Positions 11,244 through 51,766 of a stretch of 64,000 bases of DNA are shown one piece after another (positions within the stretch are counted from its first letter, which is position 1; every line of letters begins with the position of its first letter). The notes beneath the pieces are model-generated. The model made no database searches. It worked only from the letters and a program-made list of their open reading frames with translations, and had not been told where the DNA came from. Source of the DNA: Chloroflexota bacterium (lineage in GTDB: Bacteria > Chloroflexota > Dehalococcoidia > UBA2979); assembly GCA_947470025.1 (NCBI GenBank), contig CANIRU010000001.1, forward strand, positions 7,331-71,330, written 5' to 3'. Both the position numbers and the translations under genes were made by a program.

Positions 11244-11702
11244 CTATGGCGTGATCTCCGTGTCCGTGGGAGATGGGGGGCTGGTCCAGTCGCCGCACAC
11301 CGCCTCGACGTAGTACGTGTACACCGTCAGCGGCGCGAGGCCGCCATCCACGTACATCGTGCTGGCGCGGCCACCCTGGAACCACACGAGGGTGTAGGTC
11401 ACGTCCGGGTCCGCGATGCGGTAGACGTTGTAGCCGGTGGTGCAGGCGCTCGCCGATTGCGCCCAGTTCAGCGTGATCTGCCCCGGCCCGGTGAGCGTCG
11501 CGACCAAGGCAACCGGCGCGAGGACGTTCGCGGACGACACGGTGCTGACGTTCGACTGGGTCGCCGTGAACAGGCCGATGCTGCGCTCGATCGGGATCAC
11601 GTAGGTGCAGGAGGATGCGACGAGGATCGCGGACACGAGGAACCGCCACGAACTGATCGCGGCGGTCATCCTCGAGCGAAGGGCGATGGTCATCGACGTC
11701 AC
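11244..11702 (-). CDS. Secreted FN3-like domain protein, possible second SipW-cognate substrate
   Basis: Signal peptide MTAAISSWRFLVSAILVASS, FN3-like TLTGPGQITLNWAQSASACTTGYNVYR, and N-terminal SIGLFTATQSNVSTVSSANVL weakly resembling the SipW-cognate motif. Confidence 0.55.
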   Translation of the reverse strand: MTSMTIALRSRMTAAISSWRFLVSAILVASSCTYVIPIERSIGLFTATQSNVSTVSSANVLAPVALVATLTGPGQITLNWAQSASACTTGYNVYRIADPDVTYTLVWFQGGRASTMYVDGGLAPLTVYTYYVEAVCGDWTSPPSPTDTEITP

Positions 11703-11733: not shown

Positions 11734-12300
11734 TTACGGGTTGTTCGCCGTCTGCTCCGCGTCGAAGGTGAAGGTCGCCGTTGTGGTCGCGTCCTGGAAC
11801 GCGTTTCCGGTCGCCAGCGGCAACTGGACCTTGAAGCACAATGTCTCGTTCGCCGCGGCGATCAGCGCGCGGTCGCCGGCCTGCGCGCCCTGGGCGTTGG
11901 AGCCGATGGCGCCGGTCGCGAGGGCGGCGGTCGCGAAGATGATCGCGCCGTCCTCGGCGGAGCAGGCGCTGGAGGTCTTGGCGCGGATCGTCAGCTCGAG
12001 CTGGCCCGCGAGCGCCTTGCCATCCGTGTTCGTGGTGTTCGTGGACATCGCGTAGCGCAGCGGCAGCGTGCCGTTGTTCGTGATCACGAGGGGGGCGATG
12101 ACGGAGTCCCCCGGCGCCATATTCGCGAGCGTCACCACTGCCGAGGCAGGTGCGCCCGCGAGCTGGATCGTGCCGCTGCCGAAGACGTTCGCGGCGTTCA
12201 CCTCGGAGTCCGTGAATACGGCGAGACTGTCGGCAGCGACAAAGCTGCCCATCGTGCCGGCCGTGAGGAGCGAGGCGAGAGCCAGTCGGAACAAGAACAT
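11734..12300 (-). CDS. TasA/camelysin-like secreted protein with SipW-cognate class signal peptide
   Basis: MFLFRLALASLLTAGTMGSFVAADSLAVFTDSEVNAANVFGSGTIQL carries the AxFxD...N.F..GT.xL hallmark of TasA/CalY-type SipW substrates. Confidence 0.75.
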   Translation of the reverse strand: MFLFRLALASLLTAGTMGSFVAADSLAVFTDSEVNAANVFGSGTIQLAGAPASAVVTLANMAPGDSVIAPLVITNNGTLPLRYAMSTNTTNTDGKALAGQLELTIRAKTSSACSAEDGAIIFATAALATGAIGSNAQGAQAGDRALIAAANETLCFKVQLPLATGNAFQDATTTATFTFDAEQTANNP

Positions 12301-12609
12301 GCGCGAATCCGCTCAGTAATCCCGTTGCACCGATTCTCGGTTGCCCCATCCGCGTCCGGCAGACCTCAACGTCGGGGCTCTCCCTAGTCTTAACCAACGT
12401 CCTCCCGCATCCCCGATCGAGGGTTCTCACCCGTCCCCACCACGTCCGTGGTGTCTCGGATCGGCCCACCGAGCCCAAAGATGCGGGGTGTCCCCGATAC
12501 GCGGGGTAGGGGTTCCCCGGCACCCTCACTAGGCGAACCCTCATGGGGGTGCTCGAACGCTCTCAGGAGGGCCCGGATGGGCTCCTAAGGAGAGCGGCGG
12601 TAACCAGAG

Positions 12610-14409
12610 GTGCCGAGGATGGTCCAGGGCAATTCGATCGGCGATGGCCGCGTGGCCGGACGGCTGGCCGACGCGGGCTCCGTGCTGAAGTCACGCGACA
12701 CGTGGCGCGTCGCGGCGCGCACGCTCCTGATGCTCGCGTCGACGCTCATCACCTTCAGCGTCCTCGCCGCCGCGATCCCCACGTTCCTCGGCATGGACTC
12801 GTTCATCATCGACGGCGGCTCGATGCGGCCGGCGGTGCCCGCGGGCGCCCTCGTCGTCGCCCAGCGCGTCGACCCGGCAATCGTGCAGGCGGGTGAGATC
12901 ATCACGTTCCGTCACAGCACGTCGCCGAACTCCCCTGTGACCCACCGCGTCGTGAAGGTCCTGCGCGAGGCCAACGGCACCACGAACCTGCTGACGAAGG
13001 GCGACGCGAACGCGAGCGCCGACCCGGAGCCCGTGGCGACCGACCTGCCGGTGTCACGCATGGTCTACAGCCTGCCGTACGCGGGCACCGTCCTCGAGTT
13101 CTCGCGCACCAGTGCCGGGAAGGTCGTGCTGATCGCGGCCCCGGCGCTGCTGCTGCTGCTGAGCATCGGCCGGAAGTCCGGCGGTGCGCAGGTTGAATCC
13201 GTTGTCTATGCATCCATCCCTGACGAGTCGAGTGAAGCGGCCACCGAGGTGCCCGCGCCGGAGAAGGTTGTCCTCATGGCCATGGCGAATCCCGTTTCCG
13301 CTGTCCCCGGCGCGCCCAGCGCACCCGATGCGCTGACGCGACTGGCCCAGCGGCCGGCCTCGGCGCCGCGCCCCGGGCTCGCGAGGCGCCTCATCGCCGC
13401 GTTCCAGGACGAACCGGCGACCCCCGTGTACTACGAGGCGGCGCCCGCGCCGGTCGCGGCGCCCATCGCGCCTGCCCAGCCCGTCCAGGCGACGATGTCG
13501 CCGCGTCCCGTGGTGGTGCCGATGGCCGCCGCTCCGTCCGCGTCGATCTACGCGGCCCCGGCGATGGCCCCCGCGATGCCAGCTCCCACGGCGATGCCGA
13601 TCATGCACGAGGCCGCATCGGCGCCACTGCAGATCGTCGCGCAGGCGGCGCAGGCCGTGCATGCGTACGCGCAGACGCCGGTGTCCGACATCGGCGACAT
13701 GCTCGACACCGACAACGAGCCGCAACTCCTGCACCTCGCGCGGTTGCGCCTGCGCTCCGTCGCGCGGCTCGCGGACATCATGCAATCCTTTGACCGCGTG
13801 GAGACCGAGGCGGCTCCGCTGCTCAATCTCGTCACCGACCTCGACCGATTGCGGCAGCAGTTCGCTGAGAACCTCGACGAGGCGATGCGCCCCCTGACGG
13901 AGTTCGCCGACCGCTGGGATGACAACCTGCTCACGCTCGCGGAGCGCATGGACGGCGAGCTGCCGCAGCAGATCGACCTCGCCGCGGAGCGCCGCCGCAT
14001 CGCGGAGATCCGAGCGCAGGTCCCGCACCGTCACACGCTGCTGATCAACCAGTTCGCGCTCGAGAAGCAGGCGATCGATGCAGCCCTGACCGTCTTCGAC
14101 GACCAGGTCGCGCGCCTGGAGGCTCAGCTCACCGCCGCGCGCCGCACCGCCGAGGCGATCGGGGACGGCATGCGGACGGCCGACTTCGGCCGCACCGTCG
14201 CCTTCCTCCGCCGCCGCACGTCGCAACTCGCGAAGCTCGCGGAGCGTGGCGCGGCGACGCCGGAGGACATCGCTCAGGCGCTGCCCCCGGCCTCGTCGCT
14301 CGCCGCGAACGACGAGGAGCACCTCGCGAACTCGCCGTACCTCGCCTCGGTGATCGGCATCCTCGACGACTCGGCGTCCGCGAAGCGACAAGGGAGCGGC
14401 GCCGCGTAG
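12610..14409 (+). CDS. sipW: SipW-type (S26B, archaeal-like) signal peptidase I with a roughly 400-aa C-terminal extension
   Basis: TM1, then GGSMRPAVPAG (catalytic Ser), VTHRVVKV (His), TKGDANASAD (Asp), then TM2 (VVLIAAPALLLLLSIG). This is followed by Pro/Ala-rich low complexity and a long predicted coiled coil (DRLRQQFAENLDEAMRPLTEFADRWDDNLLTLAERM...VARLEAQLTAARRTAEA). Confidence 0.75.
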   Translation: MPRMVQGNSIGDGRVAGRLADAGSVLKSRDTWRVAARTLLMLASTLITFSVLAAAIPTFLGMDSFIIDGGSMRPAVPAGALVVAQRVDPAIVQAGEIITFRHSTSPNSPVTHRVVKVLREANGTTNLLTKGDANASADPEPVATDLPVSRMVYSLPYAGTVLEFSRTSAGKVVLIAAPALLLLLSIGRKSGGAQVESVVYASIPDESSEAATEVPAPEKVVLMAMANPVSAVPGAPSAPDALTRLAQRPASAPRPGLARRLIAAFQDEPATPVYYEAAPAPVAAPIAPAQPVQATMSPRPVVVPMAAAPSASIYAAPAMAPAMPAPTAMPIMHEAASAPLQIVAQAAQAVHAYAQTPVSDIGDMLDTDNEPQLLHLARLRLRSVARLADIMQSFDRVETEAAPLLNLVTDLDRLRQQFAENLDEAMRPLTEFADRWDDNLLTLAERMDGELPQQIDLAAERRRIAEIRAQVPHRHTLLINQFALEKQAIDAALTVFDDQVARLEAQLTAARRTAEAIGDGMRTADFGRTVAFLRRRTSQLAKLAERGAATPEDIAQALPPASSLAANDEEHLANSPYLASVIGILDDSASAKRQGSGAA

Positions 14410-14464
14410 CGCGGCTCGCGCTCACGAACAGACTTCGCCGCGAGCACCGTTGAAGTGCCAGCGT

Positions 14465-14685
14465 GGGGCCGCCCACCCCTGCCCCTCCCGGCGTGGGCGG
14501 GGTTCAGAAGAAGAGGAACCAACGGTGAGGAGCTGCGCCCCTCACACTCCCGGCGGAATCTGCCAGTCTGCGTATCCGTTTCGCGCGCGGTGTTTAGGAT
14601 CATCGGTCTCGGGGAGCGCGAGGGCGTTGTCCTCGCTATTCGTTCCCCTTCCCGCGCAGGGAAGGGGGCAGGGGGATGGGCCGCC
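14465..14685 (+). mobile_element. MITE-like non-autonomous element with terminal inverted repeats, copy 2
   Basis: Left end GGGGCCGCCCACCCCTGCCCCTCCCGGCGTGGGCGGGG. The reverse complement of the right end is GGCGGCCCATCCCCCTGCCCCCTTCCCTGCGCGGGAAGGGG. The conserved core is identical to copy 1 apart from a few substitutions. Confidence 0.7.
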
Positions 14686-14842
14686 ATACGCCGCCACCCC
14701 GACGGGACTCACCGGCGAACAGGACTGTCCCCTGCGCTGTCCTTCGGATGGCCCACGGCGTGTCCGCGGCACGCAGCACGACGCCGAATCGCGGGATCGT
14801 CGTGACGTATCCTCAAGGGGTGATGCGCGAGAGGACTGACTG

Positions 14843-41164: not shown

Positions 41165-44100
41165 CTATCGCGCTGGGATGGTGAGCACCTGGCCGTCGCG
41201 CACGGCGTAGGTCGGGCCGGCGATGTTGTTCGCAACCGCAATGACCTGCCAGTCGACACCGACTTTCACGCCGATGCCGGAAAGCGTGTCACCAGGCAGC
41301 ACCGTGTACGACTGCACCGCTCTCGGCGCTGCTGCGGCGGCCGGCGTCGCCAGTGCAGCAGCCGGCGTCGCGGCGACGGACTTCGTCAGCGTCACGGCGG
41401 TCGAGACAGACAGTCCGTTGGGGAAAGCTGCCGCGAACGTGTCACGAAGGAACGCCGGGCCGCCCACGACGAGGAGGCGATACACGCCGCCCAGGCCCTG
41501 GACCCAGACGCCCGTCGCACCCTGCGCCACCGCCGCCGACTCGAGCTGAGTGACCGTGCCGCCGTTGAAGACGGCGAGCGCGAGGCCGGTCGAACTAAAC
41601 GTCGCCGCGCCTCCGAATCCACCAGGCGCGGCCACAGGAGCCGGCGGTGCCTGGTTGATGCGCTGCACGGAGAAGAGCGTGAAGTGCGTGACACTCGCCG
41701 TAACCGACAGCGAACCGTCCGCATTGACCGTGACGACCGCGGGCGTCGTAACCCAACTGGTGCCGCTCCAGAAGGCGAGCGTGATGTTTCCCGCGGTGCT
41801 GCCCGCCGGGACCGAAGACGCCGGCACGGTGAACGTCAGCGACACGGGGACTGCGAGCGTCGTTACGGCGATGCCGGACGACATCGCGTTGATCTGGAAA
41901 CCGGAGACGAGTGATGCACCGGAGGGCGGCGGAGCAGCGTTCGCCAGCGCGAGGTCGTTCGTGACTGACGCGACCTGCACCGTGGTGCCCGCGGGCAGGG
42001 CGCCTGCCGGGACCGACACGGTCGCCGACACACCGGTCGAGGACGTCGTGCCGACGTTCACGCTGGACGTGCCCGTGGTCGCGCCGACGTTCACATTCGA
42101 CAGCGTGGCACCCACCACATCCGGACCAGCGGTGCCACCCGAGGGCGGGACGAACAAGCTGCCACCGCCGGTACCCGGGTCAGGTGTCACTATTGGCGCG
42201 CTGATCGTGAACGTCGGCGTAGCTACCACGCTTCCGGCGTTTCCAATCGCCGTCGCCGGAATCGTGACACTCACGGTCTCGTTCGCGCCAATGCTGTATG
42301 CCGCCGTCGCGGGTACCGTGACGGTAACGATGGTCGCGCTCGTGCGCACCACCGCGGCCACTGCAAGCGTGCCCCTGACGGCCGCGTTCCAGCCTGCCGC
42401 CTCGGCCCCGGCCGAAGTCAGGCCGTTGATGATGTTCTGGCGCTGAGCGTCGAAGGTCGCGCCCGCAGCGACCCACGTGCCGTTGGTCAGCGTCACTATG
42501 ATCGTGCCGCCGGAAGAGGTCAGCGTGGACGACGGCACGCCGCTGCTCAGCGAGCCACTGAGAGACGCTGACGTTGGTACAAGGCTGAACGGCGACGAGG
42601 CGACCACCCCCGATGCGGTGCCGATCGCCGTCGCGGGGATCGTCGCGGTGACGGTCTCGCTCGCTGTGATGTTGTAAGTCGCGATGGCCGGTAACGTAAT
42701 GGTCACGACCGTCGCGCTCGTTCGCACGACGTTGCCGACGACCAAGCCGGTCTTCACCGTCGCGTTCCAGCCGGCGGCCTCGGCAGCAGCCGAGGTCAGG
42801 CCGTTGATGATGTTCTGGCGCTGAGCGTCGAACGTCGCGCCCGCGGCCACCCAATTGCCGTTCGTCAACGTCAGGATGACGGTGCCGCCACCGGCGACGA
42901 CGCCGGCCTCAGTGTTCGCGCCGCCCTGGATGGTGCCCGTCACCGCCGCGGAAGCCGGGAGGACGTTGAAGGTCGGGCTGCCGACGATGGCAGACCCACT
43001 GACCAGTGCGGCACCGGGGACAGTGACCGTGATCGTCTCGCTCGAGGCGATGTCGTAGGTCGCGACGGCGGGCAGGGTGATCGTGATGACCGTCGCGCTC
43101 GTGCGGACCACGTTGCCGACGCTGAGGGCCGGCTTCACGGTCGCGTTCCATCCGGCCGCGGCCGCACCGCCTGAGGTCAGGCCGTTGATGATGGCCTGGC
43201 GCTGAGCGTCGAACGTGGCGCCTGCGGCGACCAGCGTGTCGTCGGCGATGGTGACGATGATCGTCCCGCCCCCGGCGACGAGTGCGCCCTCGCTGTTCGC
43301 GCCACCCTGGATCGTGCCCGTGATTGTCGCGGTCGCGCCGACGTTGAACGTGTTGCTCGTGGCAGCCGTCGCGCCCGCGCTGGTGAACCCCAGCGTGTAG
43401 CCGTTGCCGGCCACGCTCAGCGTCAGGTCGTTGAAAGTGGCGATGCCCGCCACCGCGGCGCGGGTCGTCGTGCCGGCGAGGACACTCGCAGACGGGTTCG
43501 TCCCGACGGCAGCGACCACGTTGGTGGTGTCTGAGGCGCGGAGATTGCCAAACGCATCACGGATCTGCACGGTCATCGCCGGGGCGATCGCCGCGAGCAC
43601 GGCGACGTTGCTGGGCTGCTGCGTGATGACCAGCGCGCTGACGGCGCCCGGGTTCACGGTGAACGACACCGAGGCGACGTGCGTCCCGGACAGGCCGACT
43701 TCCTGCGCCTTGATCGTCGTCGACTGCGCTCGGTCAAGCGTCGTCGCGAGCGTCGTGGTCGCGAGCCCAGCCGTGAACGACACCGAGGTCGTGAAGCTAT
43801 CCGTACCGGAGGTCGGGCCGTTCGAGGCGCCCGAGAGCGCGTACGTGAGCGTCTTCGCACCGGCATAGGCCGTCGAGCCGTTCGCACCGTCGGCGACATT
43901 GCCAAAGAGGTCGACCGCCGTGATCGTCGTGAGGTTGAAGGAGACGCCCGCCGTCTGCGGACCGGCAGGCGCGACGGTCACCAGGTGGTCAGCGGCCGCG
44001 TGCCGGATCGTGAACGCCGGCGAGGAGTCGACCGTGCGCGAGACGGAGTTCAGTGTCGCGGTGAACCGCAGCACCTTGTCTGTGCCGACCAGATCGATCT

Positions 44101-45256
44101 TGAGGGCATTCGCTGAGAAGTCGGCGACGCCCGCCACTGCGGCTTTCGCGGCGGTGCCGGTCAGCGTGCCGGCGCCCGTCTGCAGGCTGGCGGTGACAGT
44201 CGCGGTCGCGTCGGTGCCCGTGGTAACGAGGTTTCCGGAAGCATCAAGGATACGAATGACGGGCTGTTGGGCGAAGGCCACACCGGCGACAGAGGTCGCG
44301 GAGGGCTGCGTGAACACAGTCATCGACAGACCGGCGCCGTTAGCGACCGTCAGGGCTGCCGTGGCACCGGTGACGCCGTTCGCGGGAGCCGCCAGGTTGG
44401 CGCCGCCGGCGTTCTGTACTGTCGCGGTGATTGTCGGCGTTTCGGAGGCGTTGGTGAGGATGAAGCCGGTCACGTTAGTGATGCCCGACGTGAAGGTCTT
44501 CGCACCGGATTGGGCGGTGACCGTCGGCGCGGTCGCGTTCGGCGAGTTGGTCGCCGTCGTCGTGAAGGAGAGATCGACCGTGCCGCCGTTAACCGACGTC
44601 GCGGTGTTGTTGAACTGATCACGCGCGGTGACGCGGACCGCAAACGCGGTACCCGCCGTCAGGGACGTGGTCGGCGTGCCGCCGCCGTTGTTCGCGTTCA
44701 AGGACTGCGTCAGGAAGTTGGTCGGCGAGCCCGCGATCTCCGCGAGCGCGCCCGCATTGCCGGACGCGGTCGAGGTGCCGCTGAACGTCAGTTTGCCGGA
44801 AGCGAGCGGCGTGCCAGCGGTCGGCTGAACCGTGACCCCGGTGTACGTGAGCACGCATGCAGCAGTGGAAGCACTTGCAACGGTAAACGTAATCGTCGAG
44901 GCCGCAGGGGTCGCGGTGTTCAGCGTCGCTGCGCCCGCTCCGATGTCGATGTCGCAGCCACCACCTGTGGGGGTGAGGGTAATCGTGGCGGACGTGTCGA
45001 ACCGGAACCCGGACGGAGCGTTCAGAATAATCGAGCCCGTCCCGATGTCGGCAGCGCCCGCCTCAGTGAGGACGGGGCCGGTCAGCGACGTGAATGCGGC
45101 CCCTGCCGCACCCTGAGCCGTGTCAGCCAAAATCGCGCCGCCGCCCGTTGCCACGGTGATCGAGGGCGGTGCCGCGTGGACAACGCTGCTCCACAGAAGA
45201 AGCCCGGCCGCAGCAACCGAGAACCCGAAGACGGCCTTGGCCGCATTCGAGCGCAA
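41165..45256 (-). CDS. Giant (1363 aa) secreted LysM-domain surface protein with Ig-like (Big) domains and three ~127-aa tandem repeats
   Basis: Signal peptide MRSNAAKAVFGFSVAAAGLLLWSSVVHA. Big-like segments (VIRILDASGNLV..., VQIRDAFGNL...). C-terminal LysM YTVLPGDTLSGIGVKVGVDWQVIAVANNI...GQVLTIP. Confidence 0.8.
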   Translation of the reverse strand: MRSNAAKAVFGFSVAAAGLLLWSSVVHAAPPSITVATGGGAILADTAQGAAGAAFTSLTGPVLTEAGAADIGTGSIILNAPSGFRFDTSATITLTPTGGGCDIDIGAGAATLNTATPAASTITFTVASASTAACVLTYTGVTVQPTAGTPLASGKLTFSGTSTASGNAGALAEIAGSPTNFLTQSLNANNGGGTPTTSLTAGTAFAVRVTARDQFNNTATSVNGGTVDLSFTTTATNSPNATAPTVTAQSGAKTFTSGITNVTGFILTNASETPTITATVQNAGGANLAAPANGVTGATAALTVANGAGLSMTVFTQPSATSVAGVAFAQQPVIRILDASGNLVTTGTDATATVTASLQTGAGTLTGTAAKAAVAGVADFSANALKIDLVGTDKVLRFTATLNSVSRTVDSSPAFTIRHAAADHLVTVAPAGPQTAGVSFNLTTITAVDLFGNVADGANGSTAYAGAKTLTYALSGASNGPTSGTDSFTTSVSFTAGLATTTLATTLDRAQSTTIKAQEVGLSGTHVASVSFTVNPGAVSALVITQQPSNVAVLAAIAPAMTVQIRDAFGNLRASDTTNVVAAVGTNPSASVLAGTTTRAAVAGIATFNDLTLSVAGNGYTLGFTSAGATAATSNTFNVGATATITGTIQGGANSEGALVAGGGTIIVTIADDTLVAAGATFDAQRQAIINGLTSGGAAAAGWNATVKPALSVGNVVRTSATVITITLPAVATYDIASSETITVTVPGAALVSGSAIVGSPTFNVLPASAAVTGTIQGGANTEAGVVAGGGTVILTLTNGNWVAAGATFDAQRQNIINGLTSAAAEAAGWNATVKTGLVVGNVVRTSATVVTITLPAIATYNITASETVTATIPATAIGTASGVVASSPFSLVPTSASLSGSLSSGVPSSTLTSSGGTIIVTLTNGTWVAAGATFDAQRQNIINGLTSAGAEAAGWNAAVRGTLAVAAVVRTSATIVTVTVPATAAYSIGANETVSVTIPATAIGNAGSVVATPTFTISAPIVTPDPGTGGGSLFVPPSGGTAGPDVVGATLSNVNVGATTGTSSVNVGTTSSTGVSATVSVPAGALPAGTTVQVASVTNDLALANAAPPPSGASLVSGFQINAMSSGIAVTTLAVPVSLTFTVPASSVPAGSTAGNITLAFWSGTSWVTTPAVVTVNADGSLSVTASVTHFTLFSVQRINQAPPAPVAAPGGFGGAATFSSTGLALAVFNGGTVTQLESAAVAQGATGVWVQGLGGVYRLLVVGGPAFLRDTFAAAFPNGLSVSTAVTLTKSVAATPAAALATPAAAAAPRAVQSYTVLPGDTLSGIGVKVGVDWQVIAVANNIAGPTYAVRDGQVLTIPAR
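42197..43336 (-). repeat. Three in-frame tandem repeats (378-381 bp each) inside the giant surface-protein gene
   Basis: ggccgttgatgatgttctggcgctgagcgtcgaa recurs at 42421, 42799 and 43180. The protein units TGTIQGGAN(S/T)E...ATFDAQRQ(A/N)IINGLTS...GWNATVK... repeat three times. Confidence 0.85.
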
Positions 45257-48341: not shown

Positions 48342-51080
48342 CTAGCGAACGGGATTCATCTTGATCCAGGCGTCGATGATCGCGCGTGCGACGGGGCCGG
48401 CCTGTGTTGAACCTGCCCCACCACGCTCTTTCACGACCACCACCGCGATGGTCGGCTTCTCAGCAGGCGCGAATGCGATGAATAGTGCATCCGATGATTC
48501 ACCCGGGGCGACCTCTGCAGAGCCGGTCTTGGCGGCGACGTTGATGCCGGGGATTGCCGCCGTCGCGGCCCAGCCGTCGGTCGTGCCGCGCACCATCATC
48601 TGGGTGACCAGGCGCGCGGTCTCCGGCGACATCGCGCTGCGCCAGGCGCCCGGTGGGTCGTTCAGGAACAGGCGCGGTCGAGGCACCACGCCGCCGTTCG
48701 CGATCGCTGCCGTCGCAAGGCCGAGCTCGAGGGGGCTGATCTGCAGCTGGCCCTGCCCGTACGCCGAGGCGGCGAGCCCGGCGTTCGAGGAGAGGAACTT
48801 CTGGTCGGTGCTGAGACGGCCGGTGCTCGTGGGCAGCGCGAACGGCGGCGCCTCGGTCAGTCCGAGCGCCTGCGACATTGCGCGCAGCTTCGCCTCGCCG
48901 ACGCGGACGCCGAGCTGCGCGAAGTAGGTGTTGCACGAGTACGCGTAGGCATCGGCGGCGGTCTTCGTCTGCTTGCCGGGCGGCTCGTTGTTGCTCGTGA
49001 CCTTCGAGCCGTCGATCACGACTTCCTTCGGGCAGGTCGCCGCGTCCTCGGGCTTCACCAGCCCCGCCTCGACGGCGGCGGCGAGCGTCACGGTCTTGAA
49101 TGTCGAGCCAGGGGTGTAGAGACCCTGCGTCACGCGGTTGAGCAGCGGGCTCTTCGGGTCGTTGAGCAGCCGGGTCCATTCCTCCTCGCCGAAGCTCGGG
49201 TTGAACGTCGGGTTGCTGATCAGCGCGAGAATGTCGCCGGTCCGCGGGTCGATCGCGACCGCGGCGCCGATGCTGTTCCCCATCGCCGCTGCTGCCGTCC
49301 GCTGCAGGCGATTGTCGAGGGTGAGGCGCACGTCGGTGCCCGCGCGCGGGACGTGCAGCAGGTCGCGCCATGTGTCGGCGGGGGTGGTGGTGGTGCGGCC
49401 CATCAAGGTGTCGGACACGGCTGCCTCGGCGCCTGAAGTGCCGAAGCGCGGCGAGGTGAAGCCCAGAGCGTGGACCGCGCTCGGGTCGGTGTAGCGCCGC
49501 AGCGCGCCCGCGGGGCTGAGCACCGTGTCCGCCAGCACTGTGCCGTTGCGGTCGAGCAACCGTCCACGCTCGACGCGCACCGCCTCGAGGTTCAGCCGCT
49601 CGCCGCCGACGCGCGGGTCGTTCGCCAGATCGGGCCGCGCCACCTGCCAGTACCCGAGCCCTGCCGCGATCGCGACGAACCCGGCGAGGAGCGCGTAGGC
49701 GATGTGCTGCGTGCGCCGGACAGCATCGCCAGCCTCGGGGGTGAAGCGCGCAGAGGGCGTCTCTCCGGTGCGCGACATCAGCGCGAGGATCACCCACGCC
49801 ATCAGCATCGAGCTGCCGCCGTAACTGACAAACGGGCTCGTCACGCCGGTGAGCGGCAGCATCCGCAGCACGCCCGCCGACACGACGATGATCTGCACGC
49901 CGACGCTCAGTGCGAGCCCCGCACCCAGGTACTGCTCAAACCGCGAGTCGGAGAACTGCGCGCGCGTCAGCCCTCGCGCCACGAACAGCCCGTAGAGGAG
50001 CACGACGGCGAGCGAGCCGACGAGCCCCCACTCCTCGCCGATCACGGCGAGCGGGTAGTCGGTGTGCGCGGCGGGGATGACCCCGGGGAAGCCGTACCCC
50101 GGCCCGCTGCCGATCACGCCGCCGAAGACGAAGCCTCCGATCGCTTGCAGCGACTGGTACCCGACGCCCCGTGCGTCCGCCCACGGATCGATCCACGCGG
50201 TGATGCGCGTGTGCACGTGCGCCGACGCGGTGTACGCCAGCGGTGCGAGGACCACGAACCCGACGAATGCGAGCGCGATCGCATCGCGCCGCCCGGTGGC
50301 GATGTACAGCATGCCGAGGAACGCCGCGACGAAGAGGATCGCGGGGCCGAAGTCGCGCTGCGCGGCGACAGCGAGCAGGCTGAGCGCCACCATCCCCAGC
50401 AGCGGCAGCCAGTACACCCTCGACGGGATGTCGAGACGGCCGATGCGACCGAGGTTGGTGCGTGCCGCGGTCAGCAGATGGCCGCGCTCGCTCAGGTACG
50501 TCGCGATGAACGCGATCAGCGCGATGCGCAGCACCTCGCCCGGTTGGATCGTGAGCGGGCCGACGCGCAGCCAGATGCGCGTGCCGCTGCCGTTCACGTC
50601 GTCGGCGAGGAACAGCGTGGACAGCACTGCGAGGATCGCGAGGCCCAGCCACAGCGTGCGGAAGCGCCGCATCCACGACAGCAGCGGCGGGAACCCGACG
50701 AGCACGATGAACAGCGCCCATCCGAGCGTGATCCAGAGCACCTGTACGTTCAGCCTGGTCGGCTGCACGCGCGCGATCACCGCGAGGCCCATCGCGCACA
50801 GCATCCAGACGGGCGACAGCAGCAGGGGGTCCCACGTGCGCCGCATCGCGCGCATGAGTAGCGGCGTGACGAGCGGCAGCAGCGCCGCCAGCAGCACGGC
50901 GCGCTCGAGGTCGTTCGGCGGCGCGGTGCGCGTGGTCAGGACGACGGACATCGGCGCCGCGACGAGGACCAGCGCGGGCAGCAGCCACAGCACGACGGTG
51001 TACCGGCGCGGCCGCCTCACCGTCGCGATCGTGGAGGCGGCGAACGAGCCGCCCTCGAATGAACCAGGCAGCGCCGTCAT
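48342..51080 (-). CDS. Natural fusion of SEDS glycosyltransferase (RodA/FtsW) and class B PBP transpeptidase (PBP2/PbpA)
   Basis: True start MTALPGSFEGG... at 51080, giving 912 aa; the upstream part of listed ORF 48342..51707 reads through the FHA gene in another frame. The N-terminal half has at least 10 TM segments with the SEDS motif HTDYPLAVIGEEWGLVGSL. The C-terminal half has STFK (SxxK), SCN (SxN) and KTGS. Confidence 0.85.
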   Translation of the reverse strand: MTALPGSFEGGSFAASTIATVRRPRRYTVVLWLLPALVLVAAPMSVVLTTRTAPPNDLERAVLLAALLPLVTPLLMRAMRRTWDPLLLSPVWMLCAMGLAVIARVQPTRLNVQVLWITLGWALFIVLVGFPPLLSWMRRFRTLWLGLAILAVLSTLFLADDVNGSGTRIWLRVGPLTIQPGEVLRIALIAFIATYLSERGHLLTAARTNLGRIGRLDIPSRVYWLPLLGMVALSLLAVAAQRDFGPAILFVAAFLGMLYIATGRRDAIALAFVGFVVLAPLAYTASAHVHTRITAWIDPWADARGVGYQSLQAIGGFVFGGVIGSGPGYGFPGVIPAAHTDYPLAVIGEEWGLVGSLAVVLLYGLFVARGLTRAQFSDSRFEQYLGAGLALSVGVQIIVVSAGVLRMLPLTGVTSPFVSYGGSSMLMAWVILALMSRTGETPSARFTPEAGDAVRRTQHIAYALLAGFVAIAAGLGYWQVARPDLANDPRVGGERLNLEAVRVERGRLLDRNGTVLADTVLSPAGALRRYTDPSAVHALGFTSPRFGTSGAEAAVSDTLMGRTTTTPADTWRDLLHVPRAGTDVRLTLDNRLQRTAAAAMGNSIGAAVAIDPRTGDILALISNPTFNPSFGEEEWTRLLNDPKSPLLNRVTQGLYTPGSTFKTVTLAAAVEAGLVKPEDAATCPKEVVIDGSKVTSNNEPPGKQTKTAADAYAYSCNTYFAQLGVRVGEAKLRAMSQALGLTEAPPFALPTSTGRLSTDQKFLSSNAGLAASAYGQGQLQISPLELGLATAAIANGGVVPRPRLFLNDPPGAWRSAMSPETARLVTQMMVRGTTDGWAATAAIPGINVAAKTGSAEVAPGESSDALFIAFAPAEKPTIAVVVVKERGGAGSTQAGPVARAIIDAWIKMNPVR

Positions 51081-51646
51081 CGCGCGCCGTTCTTCGCCGT
51101 GTCGCGGACAAGGCGCGCGACCACCGGGCCGAAGCGCACCTCGGTCGACGGGTCGAGGCGCTCGCGCCCAGAGACGCGACGCGAACCGATGTAGGTGCCG
51201 TTCGTGGAACCGAGGTCCTCGACCCACCATGCGCCGCGGTCGGGGAAGACGCGCGCATGCCGAGAGGAGACCTGCCGCTCCGGCAGCACGATCGTGCTCC
51301 CTACATTGCGCCCGATGAGCGCCGGCCCGCGCAGCGCATACGAGCGCCCAGCGAGCCGCCCCGGCTCGCCACCCTCGCCGGTGTACTCGAGCACCTCGAG
51401 GTGATCGCCCACGCGCGCGGGCGCGTCGAGGGGAACGACCTCCACGAGTGCGGTGGGAGCAGACGCGGACGGAGTGGCGACCCCGTACGTGGGGAGAGCG
51501 ACCGCGTAGGGCATCGTGCGTGCGCGCACCTCGGCGCGGAGGGCGCGGATGGCGATCAGCAGGAAGAGGTACAGCGCCGCTGCCACGCCGATGCGCAGCC
51601 CGAGGAGCACCAGCGGCCAGTTGTCCTGCAGCATCCGCTCTCCCAC
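51077..51646 (-). CDS. FHA-domain membrane protein (FhaB/FipA-like)
   Basis: N-terminal TM, then GRNVGSTIVLPERQVSSRHARVFPDRGAWWVEDLGSTNGTYIG. Its TGA stop overlaps the ATG of the RodA-PBP fusion (ATGA). Confidence 0.85.
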   Translation of the reverse strand: MGERMLQDNWPLVLLGLRIGVAAALYLFLLIAIRALRAEVRARTMPYAVALPTYGVATPSASAPTALVEVVPLDAPARVGDHLEVLEYTGEGGEPGRLAGRSYALRGPALIGRNVGSTIVLPERQVSSRHARVFPDRGAWWVEDLGSTNGTYIGSRRVSGRERLDPSTEVRFGPVVARLVRDTAKNGAR

Positions 51647-51766
51647 ACCAACCGATGGGCGCCCCCGCAGCGGCTATGATCGGTGGAACCAGTGTCGCAC
51701 AGGCCAACGGGACGACCGTTGCGATCCCGAGTTGGTCTGGCCAGCGTTGGTTTGGCGGGAGTACAC

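Follow-up and report, generated by a model that had tools for sequence, protein, structure and literature searches.

A long signal peptidase gene and its integrity

Our analysis concerns a long gene for an S26B, SipW-like signal peptidase, situated at 12619..14409 on the forward strand of a 64,000-nt stretch of a Dehalococcoidia genome (Chloroflexota bacterium, assembly GCA_947470025.1; the whole stretch is hereafter called the window). The underlying open reading frame (ORF) spans 12610..14409 (+) and comprises 599 codons counted from the GTG at 12610; residue numbers are counted from this GTG throughout, not from the ATG at 12619. That ATG is nevertheless the likely start, giving a product of 596 aa, because MVQG is the N-terminus of every homologue, and the frame of one of these, L004, is closed by a stop three codons before this Met. 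The GC content of the window is about 70%, and the GC content at third codon positions (GC3) in the frame of the ORF ranges from 0.78 to 0.97 over 12570-14370 and collapses on both flanks, in agreement with the high GC3 bias reported for this ORF in the initial annotation. Because this signal is continuous, the whole ORF, including its low-complexity part, has a coding signature. Alongside the match to TIGR02228, 17 long homologues, and the ratios of nonsynonymous to synonymous substitution rates (dN/dS) given below, it confirms that the gene is real and coding over its entire length.

The N-terminal part encodes what the initial annotation had taken to be a complete S26B/SipW-type core (a first transmembrane segment, a GGSMRPA serine, a THRVV histidine, a TKGDAN aspartate, and a second transmembrane segment), and our searches agree. 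Specifically, TIGR02228 (sigpep_I_arch) matches residues 42-184 with 84.3 bits, against a cut-off of 51.85, and the match covers profile positions 9-152 of 158; in the same protein, Pfam Peptidase_S26 reaches only 20.3 bits, against a threshold of 22.9. The Bacillus SipW equivalog NF046067 scores 69.4 bits, below its cut-off of 190. Judged by these profiles, the peptidase is of a SipW-like kind, although the NCBI criterion does not class it as an orthologue of the Bacillus protein.

Hydropathy delineates two transmembrane (TM) segments and none further on. TM1 (residues ~38-60; 12721..12789, +) is preceded by basic residues (K, R, R, R), while TM2 (residues ~168-188; 13111..13173, +) is directly followed by GRK and would lead the chain back into the cytoplasm. 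The predicted topology is hence an N-in TM1, a catalytic domain outside (12790..13110, +), and a C-terminal TM2. The motifs within this domain, GGSMRPA (Ser71, 12820-12822), THRVV (His112, 12943-12945), and KGDANASAD (Asp132, 13003-13005; Asp138, 13021-13023), align with GSMEPA, HRV, and KGDNNxxDD of human SEC11A and SEC11C in the structurally solved signal peptidase complex (7p2p, 7p2q), and the Ser, His, and Asp residues are kept in every homologue that has a core. The absence of a catalytic triad on proper alignment, which had been named as a finding that would count against the assignment, was thus not what we observed. The dN/dS of the core is 0.27-0.32 (here and below, Nei-Gojobori estimates against three relatives). 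From sequence, the protein is very probably an active S26B enzyme with signal peptidase activity.

The length of the protein is exceptional, given that 95 distant S26B homologues have a median of 182 aa and 85 of them do not exceed 230 aa, which also bears out the earlier remark that the extension is unusual beside a canonical SipW of about 190 aa. One explanation would be artefactual, with an ordinary ~190-aa SipW joined to an independent downstream gene by frameshift or misassembly, or with an extension that is non-coding. Long spurious ORFs are indeed abundant in high-GC genomes, several overlapping ones are listed in the window, and frameshifts do occur in individual relatives (the C-terminus of P0002 and the core of P0013). 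However, among 5.8 billion proteins searched, we retrieved 17 relatives from different metagenome assemblies that are 442-694 aa long and 36-89% identical, those with names being labelled as Dehalococcoidia or Chloroflexota metagenome-assembled genomes. All 17 share one layout, consisting of the peptidase core, a variable linker, and a highly conserved C-terminal domain (C-dom) of ~230 aa. This uninterrupted architecture recurs in ~17 close and ~13 distant cluster representatives from different samples, the GC3 signal stays in frame, the dN/dS of the C-dom is 0.22-0.31, and the ORF can be explained without a separate start or a break resembling a ribosome-binding site. Further, the close relatives include no complete short form: the short ones (188-324 aa, 78% identity) break off within the linker, their contigs being no longer than 4.4 kb, and one is annotated “partial”. 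The expectation that homologues in close relatives might end at about 200 aa therefore fails, and an artefactual fusion, which the GC3, the long homologues, the dN/dS, and the short forms cut at contig ends effectively refute, is extremely improbable.

Two individual homologues deserve mention. The short homologue P0110 ends in “...RKSTRLNSSH”, unlike the linker of the others, a string that is probably a recurrent sequencing or assembly artefact and not a real short form. In the closest relative (L005, protein P0002; 89-94% identity), the last ~40 residues diverge into Arg/Ser/Pro-rich sequence, consistent with a frameshift or assembly error. When GTDB genomes were scanned with the A2 profile, all matches were to close relatives within the Chloroflexota.

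The C-terminal extension and the distribution of its domain

The protein continues for ~410 aa after TM2, and the uninterrupted extension of about 400 aa originally proposed is retained with the same layout by its homologues. Its first part (residues ~189-370; 13174..13719, +) is the Pro/Ala-rich, low-complexity stretch that had already been described after the core, with 26% Ala and 16% Pro. It is predicted to be a disordered cytoplasmic linker: in an AlphaFold2 (AF2) model of the full protein, the predicted local distance difference test score (pLDDT) lies below 45 for residues ~190-370, as opposed to 70-86 for residues 372-585. Among homologues, the linker varies between 63 and 270 aa, is Pro/Ala/Gln-rich, and is poorly alignable, and its dN/dS is 0.59-0.65. 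Within it, the homologue alignment reveals one conserved short motif, DALTRLAQRP...RPGLARRLIAAF (residues 240-266; 13327..13407, +), with the consensus ALxRLAQRP...RPGLxRRLxAAF, in which P249 is invariant and L242, L245, R254, and P255 are nearly so. Analogous hydrophobic-basic linker motifs occur in the other protein types described below (MRFGSR for beta-lactamase types, AMxxFK for SLT types).

The linker leads into the C-dom (residues ~371-587; 13720..14370, +), which AF2, profile searches, and dN/dS together delimit as an all-helical and, by prediction, cytoplasmic domain. Modelled alone from a 40-sequence alignment, this unit of about 220-230 aa attains a pLDDT of 89 and a predicted template modelling score of 0.65. 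The model (in whose numbering domain residue 1 is protein residue 361) comprises two long helices, one of ~74 residues and one of ~89 residues that is kinked twice, together with several short helices and a disordered end. Hydrophobic residues recur in each long helix with a period of 3.6 rather than 3.5 (significant against shuffles), which points to an amphipathic helical hairpin or bundle instead of a canonical heptad coiled coil. Of the long helical, coiled-coil-like region anticipated in the initial annotation, the helical character was thus upheld, while the canonical coiled coil was not. The domain carries the conserved polar motifs EYAD, FDxD, QRR, MRS, and GxTDP, and purifying selection on it matches that on the catalytic core.

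Family searches point to an undescribed domain family. Residues 200-599 have no significant match in Pfam or NCBIfam, and a Pfam scan of 40 diverse members of the C-dom family likewise returned only sub-threshold coiled-coil noise; Baculo_PEP_C, Exonuc_VII_L, and ZorA were rejected as identities because they appeared solely at that level. A PADLOC scan of the window protein gave nothing. Searching PDB sequences with a C-dom profile retrieved nothing meaningful (best E of 0.001, to a designed helical protein), and the best Foldseek E-values were 0.75 in the PDB and 0.59 among the viral models of BFVD. EnvC, the Smc5/6 arms, chemoreceptors, Vipp1, and IpaB surfaced as generic long-helix Foldseek matches, all with E above 0.5, and were set aside; the comparison with Vipp1 (7o3x) gave an E of 1.8 and TM-scores of 0.29-0.31. 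Membership in PspA/IM30/ESCRT-III was also rejected, with hhalign assigning a probability of 1.7% to the match between A3 and E. coli PspA.

Beyond the signal peptidases, a C-dom profile run against 1.84 billion cluster representatives recovered 82 cluster proteins, 68 of them at E <=1e-10, and re-scanning these proteins resolved four architectures. In the first, an S26B core is joined to the C-dom in proteins of 480-600 aa; it includes at least 13 further clusters, whose C-dom identity to that of the window is 20-35%. In the second, an N-terminal class-A beta-lactamase-like domain (PF13354, Beta-lactamase2) takes the place of the core, in proteins of 650-800 aa. The third combines an SLT lytic transglycosylase with the C-dom, and the fourth is minimal, with an N-terminal TM helix, a linker, and the C-dom (e.g., P0105, on a 1.59 Mb contig). 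No second copy of the C-dom is present in the window, and no recurrent partner genes were found around the beta-lactamase-type, SLT-type, or minimal forms.

In every architecture, a hydrophobic helix lies 50-130 residues before the C-dom, and the mean number of Lys+Arg per 12 residues is 2.7 after that helix versus 0.85 before it (n=55). At their N-termini, the enzyme domains carry signal or anchor segments. Because a TM helix precedes the C-dom without exception and the flanking charges show a positive-inside bias, the C-dom very probably resides, with its linker, in the cytoplasm while the enzyme lies outside, and the cytoplasmic placement of the extension originally deduced from SipW topology can be extended to the family.

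The relations among the architectures can be traced in part. In a neighbour-joining tree of the C-dom, the beta-lactamase and SLT types group together and the SipW types are deep and paraphyletic, a pattern that points to a small number of fusions and to a long-standing association of the domain with the peptidase. Five beta-lactamase2 proteins (P0039, P0043, P0056, P0059, and P0063) keep SxxK (as SLYK) and KTG, and have no ExxLN (Glu166-type) motif; SDN or SNN is kept in four of the five and is missing in P0063. These motifs suggest a penicillin-binding or sensor domain rather than a hydrolytic beta-lactamase. Two segments, an N-terminal “DLxxGxRC” and a C-terminal “HDAG(I/V)...F(V/L)”, are retained in the SLT types P0083 and P0087, and the same two flank the central beta-lactamase-like region (with SxxK and SDN) of P0039, P0043, and P0059, which suggests that the SLT forms arose from beta-lactamase forms via domain replacement.

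Two lineages close to the window illustrate how the extension may outlast the peptidase. First, L013 (and also L009, P0015) is syntenic with the window, with the deacetylase, amidase, and Old Yellow Enzyme reductase genes upstream and the RND pump downstream, and has lost the peptidase core along with the genes for the alpha/beta hydrolase, the fn3-like protein, and the TasA-like protein; what persists is an ORF for the TM segment, the linker, and the C-dom, at 67% identity. Second, in the P0013/P0113 lineage (L001-L003, L008), a frameshift of one base, located between the Ser and His motifs (about L001:2425-2440), splits the gene into ORFs of 111 aa and 442 aa and leaves the tail and the TasA-like genes intact. 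This frameshift is probably real, as the N-terminal fragment was recorded on 11 contigs. Across the family, sequence comparisons thus identify the C-dom tail as a self-contained, portable unit of Chloroflexota that is independent of the peptidase.

Neighbouring genes, the conserved C-terminus, and the proposed role of the tail

Two genes beside the peptidase gene provide its presumed substrates. Upstream of it, and divergently oriented, is a gene for a TasA/camelysin-like Peptidase_M73 protein of 188 aa (11734..12300, -), in which a hydrophobic N-terminal segment is followed by SLA-VFTD; next to this lies a gene for a small protein of 152 aa with a weak fn3 match (11244..11702, -), in which a hydrophobic N-terminal segment is followed by SIG-LFTA. 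We take both junctions to resemble the A-x-F-(S/T/N)-D junction of SipW-dependent precursors. An M73 gene also lies beside the long peptidase gene in L001-L004, L007, L014, L019, and L020, and close relatives conserve all three genes together, for the long peptidase, the M73 protein, and a small protein of ~116-154 aa. In the distant SipW-type P0017, P0045, and P0047 (C-dom identity 20-35%), the trio forms a co-directional operon. By analogy with SipW systems, we strongly infer that the M73 and fn3-like proteins are substrates of the peptidase, the latter being presumed either a second substrate or a fibre accessory protein.

The intergenic region between the TasA-like and peptidase genes (12301..12618), in which the GC3 signal is gone, presumably holds the promoters of both divergent genes; a promoter scan of this interval found no sigma-70-like consensus. 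On the other side, ~430 nt without coding signal (14410-14842) separate the peptidase gene from a LigB-type dioxygenase gene and include a single terminator-like hairpin at 14618-14636. The downstream LigB dioxygenase, RND pump, and PBP1A genes are syntenic within the close clade only. No RNA families or tRNAs were found in the window. Elsewhere in the window, a 1121-aa ORF (48342-51707, -) unites a SEDS domain (FtsW/RodA, residues 320-646) and a class-B penicillin-binding protein (PBP) transpeptidase (residues 814-1111), with an N-terminal extension of ~320 aa that has no family match, while a 1363-aa ORF (41165-45256, -; GC3 0.83) has a C-terminal LysM as its sole recognizable domain.

The peptidase itself ends in a short disordered tail (14371..14406, +) that closes on -Gly-Ala-Ala, the Ala-Ala codons lying at 14401-14406. 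Specifically, the window protein terminates in GSGAA, and pLDDT is below 50 for residues 588-599 in the AF2 model. Ala is the last residue in nearly all complete members of the family. Among 14 SipW-type representatives, 13 end in Ala and 11 in -AA (GAA, VAA, SAA, PAA, or RAA). The other architectures (n=55) end in Ala in 32 cases and in [AST]-Ala in 24, and many of their non-Ala exceptions look truncated or frameshifted; for comparison, 9 of the 42 likely genes of the window, the peptidase gene included, encode proteins ending in Ala and 4 encode proteins ending in -AA. The stretch before the terminal -[Ser/Thr/Ala]-Ala is disordered and often acidic. An x-Ala-Ala-COOH end is the ssrA-type recognition signal of ClpX. 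On membrane anti-sigma factors, namely RseA of E. coli and RsdA, RsmA, and RslA of M. tuberculosis, ends of the VAA, GAA, and AAA kind confer graded ClpX binding and unfolding (10.1101/491043). By analogy, the conserved -AA end is suggestive of an ssrA-like ClpX degron. No transfer-messenger RNA, which would carry the lineage's own ssrA tag, was found in the window or in the loci examined.

Taken together, we favour a composite reading, with a probability of about one half, in which a TasA-dedicated peptidase bears a cytoplasmic handle for docking and turnover. In this model, the S26B enzyme would cleave the signal peptides of its TasA-like and fn3-like neighbours on the outer face of the membrane, and TM2 would lead into a cytoplasmic module made up of a linker with its motif, the helical C-dom, and a floppy end with a free -Ala-Ala. 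The tail would take no part in catalysis; instead, we hypothesize that it serves docking and turnover control, joining an outward-acting enzyme to something inside. The C-dom may bind a putative cytoplasmic partner, or itself, and so fix the position of the enzyme, while the exposed ssrA-like -AA end would make the protein a ClpX-type substrate whose lifetime is set from the cytoplasm. That such tails can carry a second function is suggested by B. subtilis SipW, for which Terra et al. 2012, as cited in PMC13566338, reported adhesion defects upon deletion of the last 20 tail residues.

Several observations weigh against this composite. The beta-lactamase-type, SLT-type, and minimal forms have no conserved cytoplasmic neighbour gene beside them. 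In most beta-lactamase types, an acidic tail closes on (S/T)-A, which is no classical ClpX C-motif, and Ala is a frequent residue in this 70% GC proteome. A degron alone needs no conserved 220-aa domain, and turnover alone cannot explain the C-dom. All family sequences are metagenomic, and the full-length protein is known from genes alone.

For the earlier proposal of a tail that would tether the enzyme to a partner in the cytoskeleton or in secretion, no partner was identified, and a secretion-specific role is less likely given that the tail also occurs on beta-lactamase-like and lytic transglycosylase enzymes and on bare TM anchors. The same breadth of hosts (three kinds of envelope enzyme and bare anchors) would fit a generic addressing module, in which the C-dom attaches to a scaffold of cytoskeletal or divisome type, or assembles with itself, and thereby concentrates the peptidase or the wall enzymes at poles, septa, or sites of fibre export, with proteolysis not involved. 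Long amphipathic helices are typical of scaffold-binding or self-associating proteins, the long flexible linker would let the C-dom reach a partner, and its conserved polar motifs suggest a specific binding surface. However, no scaffold gene is linked, EzrA, DivIVA, and other known scaffolds gave no significant Foldseek match, and the conserved -AA end would go unexplained, so that we consider localization by itself possible but rather unlikely.

Alternatively, the tail could signal, as has been proposed for the short tail of B. subtilis SipW, by relaying the state of the enzyme or of the secretion process and so controlling the expression of matrix or envelope genes, for example through a regulator that remains sequestered until the tail is degraded. 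Membrane anti-sigma factors use ssrA-like ends in this manner (10.1101/491043), the tail-dependent second function of B. subtilis SipW (Terra et al. 2012, as cited in PMC13566338) offers a precedent, and the beta-lactamase types keep SxxK, SDN, and KTG without ExxLN, as expected of a penicillin-binding sensor. Nevertheless, Pfam and NCBIfam scans detected no DNA-binding, anti-sigma, kinase, or nucleotide-binding signature in the C-dom, no regulator gene is consistently adjacent, and the minimal TM-only forms have no sensing domain. A signalling tail is therefore distinctly improbable.

Returning to the docking and turnover handle, a bolder and more doubtful extension is that the C-dom defines a so far unrecognized “inside-out” mode of control across the Chloroflexota, in which one portable cytoplasmic handle, made up of TM segment, linker motif, helical domain, and ssrA-like -AA end, is placed on a fibre-specific signal peptidase, a PBP-like acyl-serine enzyme, and a lytic transglycosylase. 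If so, the cell would position its envelope enzymes, and would extract and destroy them by cytoplasmic AAA+ machinery, which would constitute a general way to govern potentially dangerous envelope enzymes from inside.

Comparison with known systems

SipW-type peptidases have been treated as minimal enzymes of ~190 aa that serve TasA-like matrix fibres, with B. subtilis providing the single hint of a separate role for their cytoplasmic tail, and in the proteins studied herein the tail appears to have grown into a conserved folded domain. Because this domain survives loss of the peptidase core, the cytoplasmic side of SipW-type enzymes can presumably carry real function. Further, the presence of an undescribed domain on wall-acting enzymes provides a testable idea of how monoderm-type Chloroflexota might control extracytoplasmic enzymes from the cytoplasm, although its practical value is limited, with all members coming from uncultured organisms (Chloroflexota). 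Judged from sequence comparison, the C-dom, its portability, and the conserved -AA end are new, while the S26B core is of an already known kind. The initial annotation had not noted the portability, the TasA-like and fn3-like neighbours, or the -AA end.

The closest model is SipW of Bacillus subtilis, encoded in the tapA-sipW-tasA operon, which processes TasA and TapA (reviewed in PMC4551309). Like the window protein, it is an S26B Ser/His peptidase with N- and C-terminal TM helices and a cytoplasmic C-terminal tail, its gene lies beside that of a TasA-family substrate, and its tail has been reported to have a role apart from catalysis. The two differ in scale, however, since SipW has 190 aa and a tail of ~20 residues, as opposed to 596 aa and a tail of ~410 residues with a folded domain. 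Unlike the Bacillus operon, the locus has no TapA homologue, the accessory gene instead encoding the small fn3-like protein, and in the clade of the window the genes are divergent rather than united in one operon.

Three further systems offer partial resemblances. The best family match of the core is to the Sec11 (SEC11A-C) and archaeal signal peptidase I group (TIGR02228), with which its Ser, His, and GDxNxxxD motifs align, but eukaryotic Sec11 has a single TM helix and acts within a multi-subunit complex. To our knowledge, no described member of the S26B family (Sec11/archaeal type) has a large cytoplasmic C-terminal domain. The beta-lactamase-type relatives, in which an extracytoplasmic penicillin-binding-type domain is linked through the membrane to a cytoplasmic domain, may resemble single-pass or bitopic envelope enzymes and sensors with cytoplasmic effector domains, such as BlaR1 and MecR1. 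The domain order is reversed here, and the C-dom lacks a protease or other recognizable effector signature. Finally, the degrons of the anti-sigma factors RseA and RsdA/RsmA/RslA likewise place x-Ala-Ala-COOH at the end of the cytoplasmic part of a membrane protein, GAA being identical to the end of the window protein. Whereas those degrons are cryptic until intramembrane cleavage, the candidate degron described here is formed by the native C-terminus.

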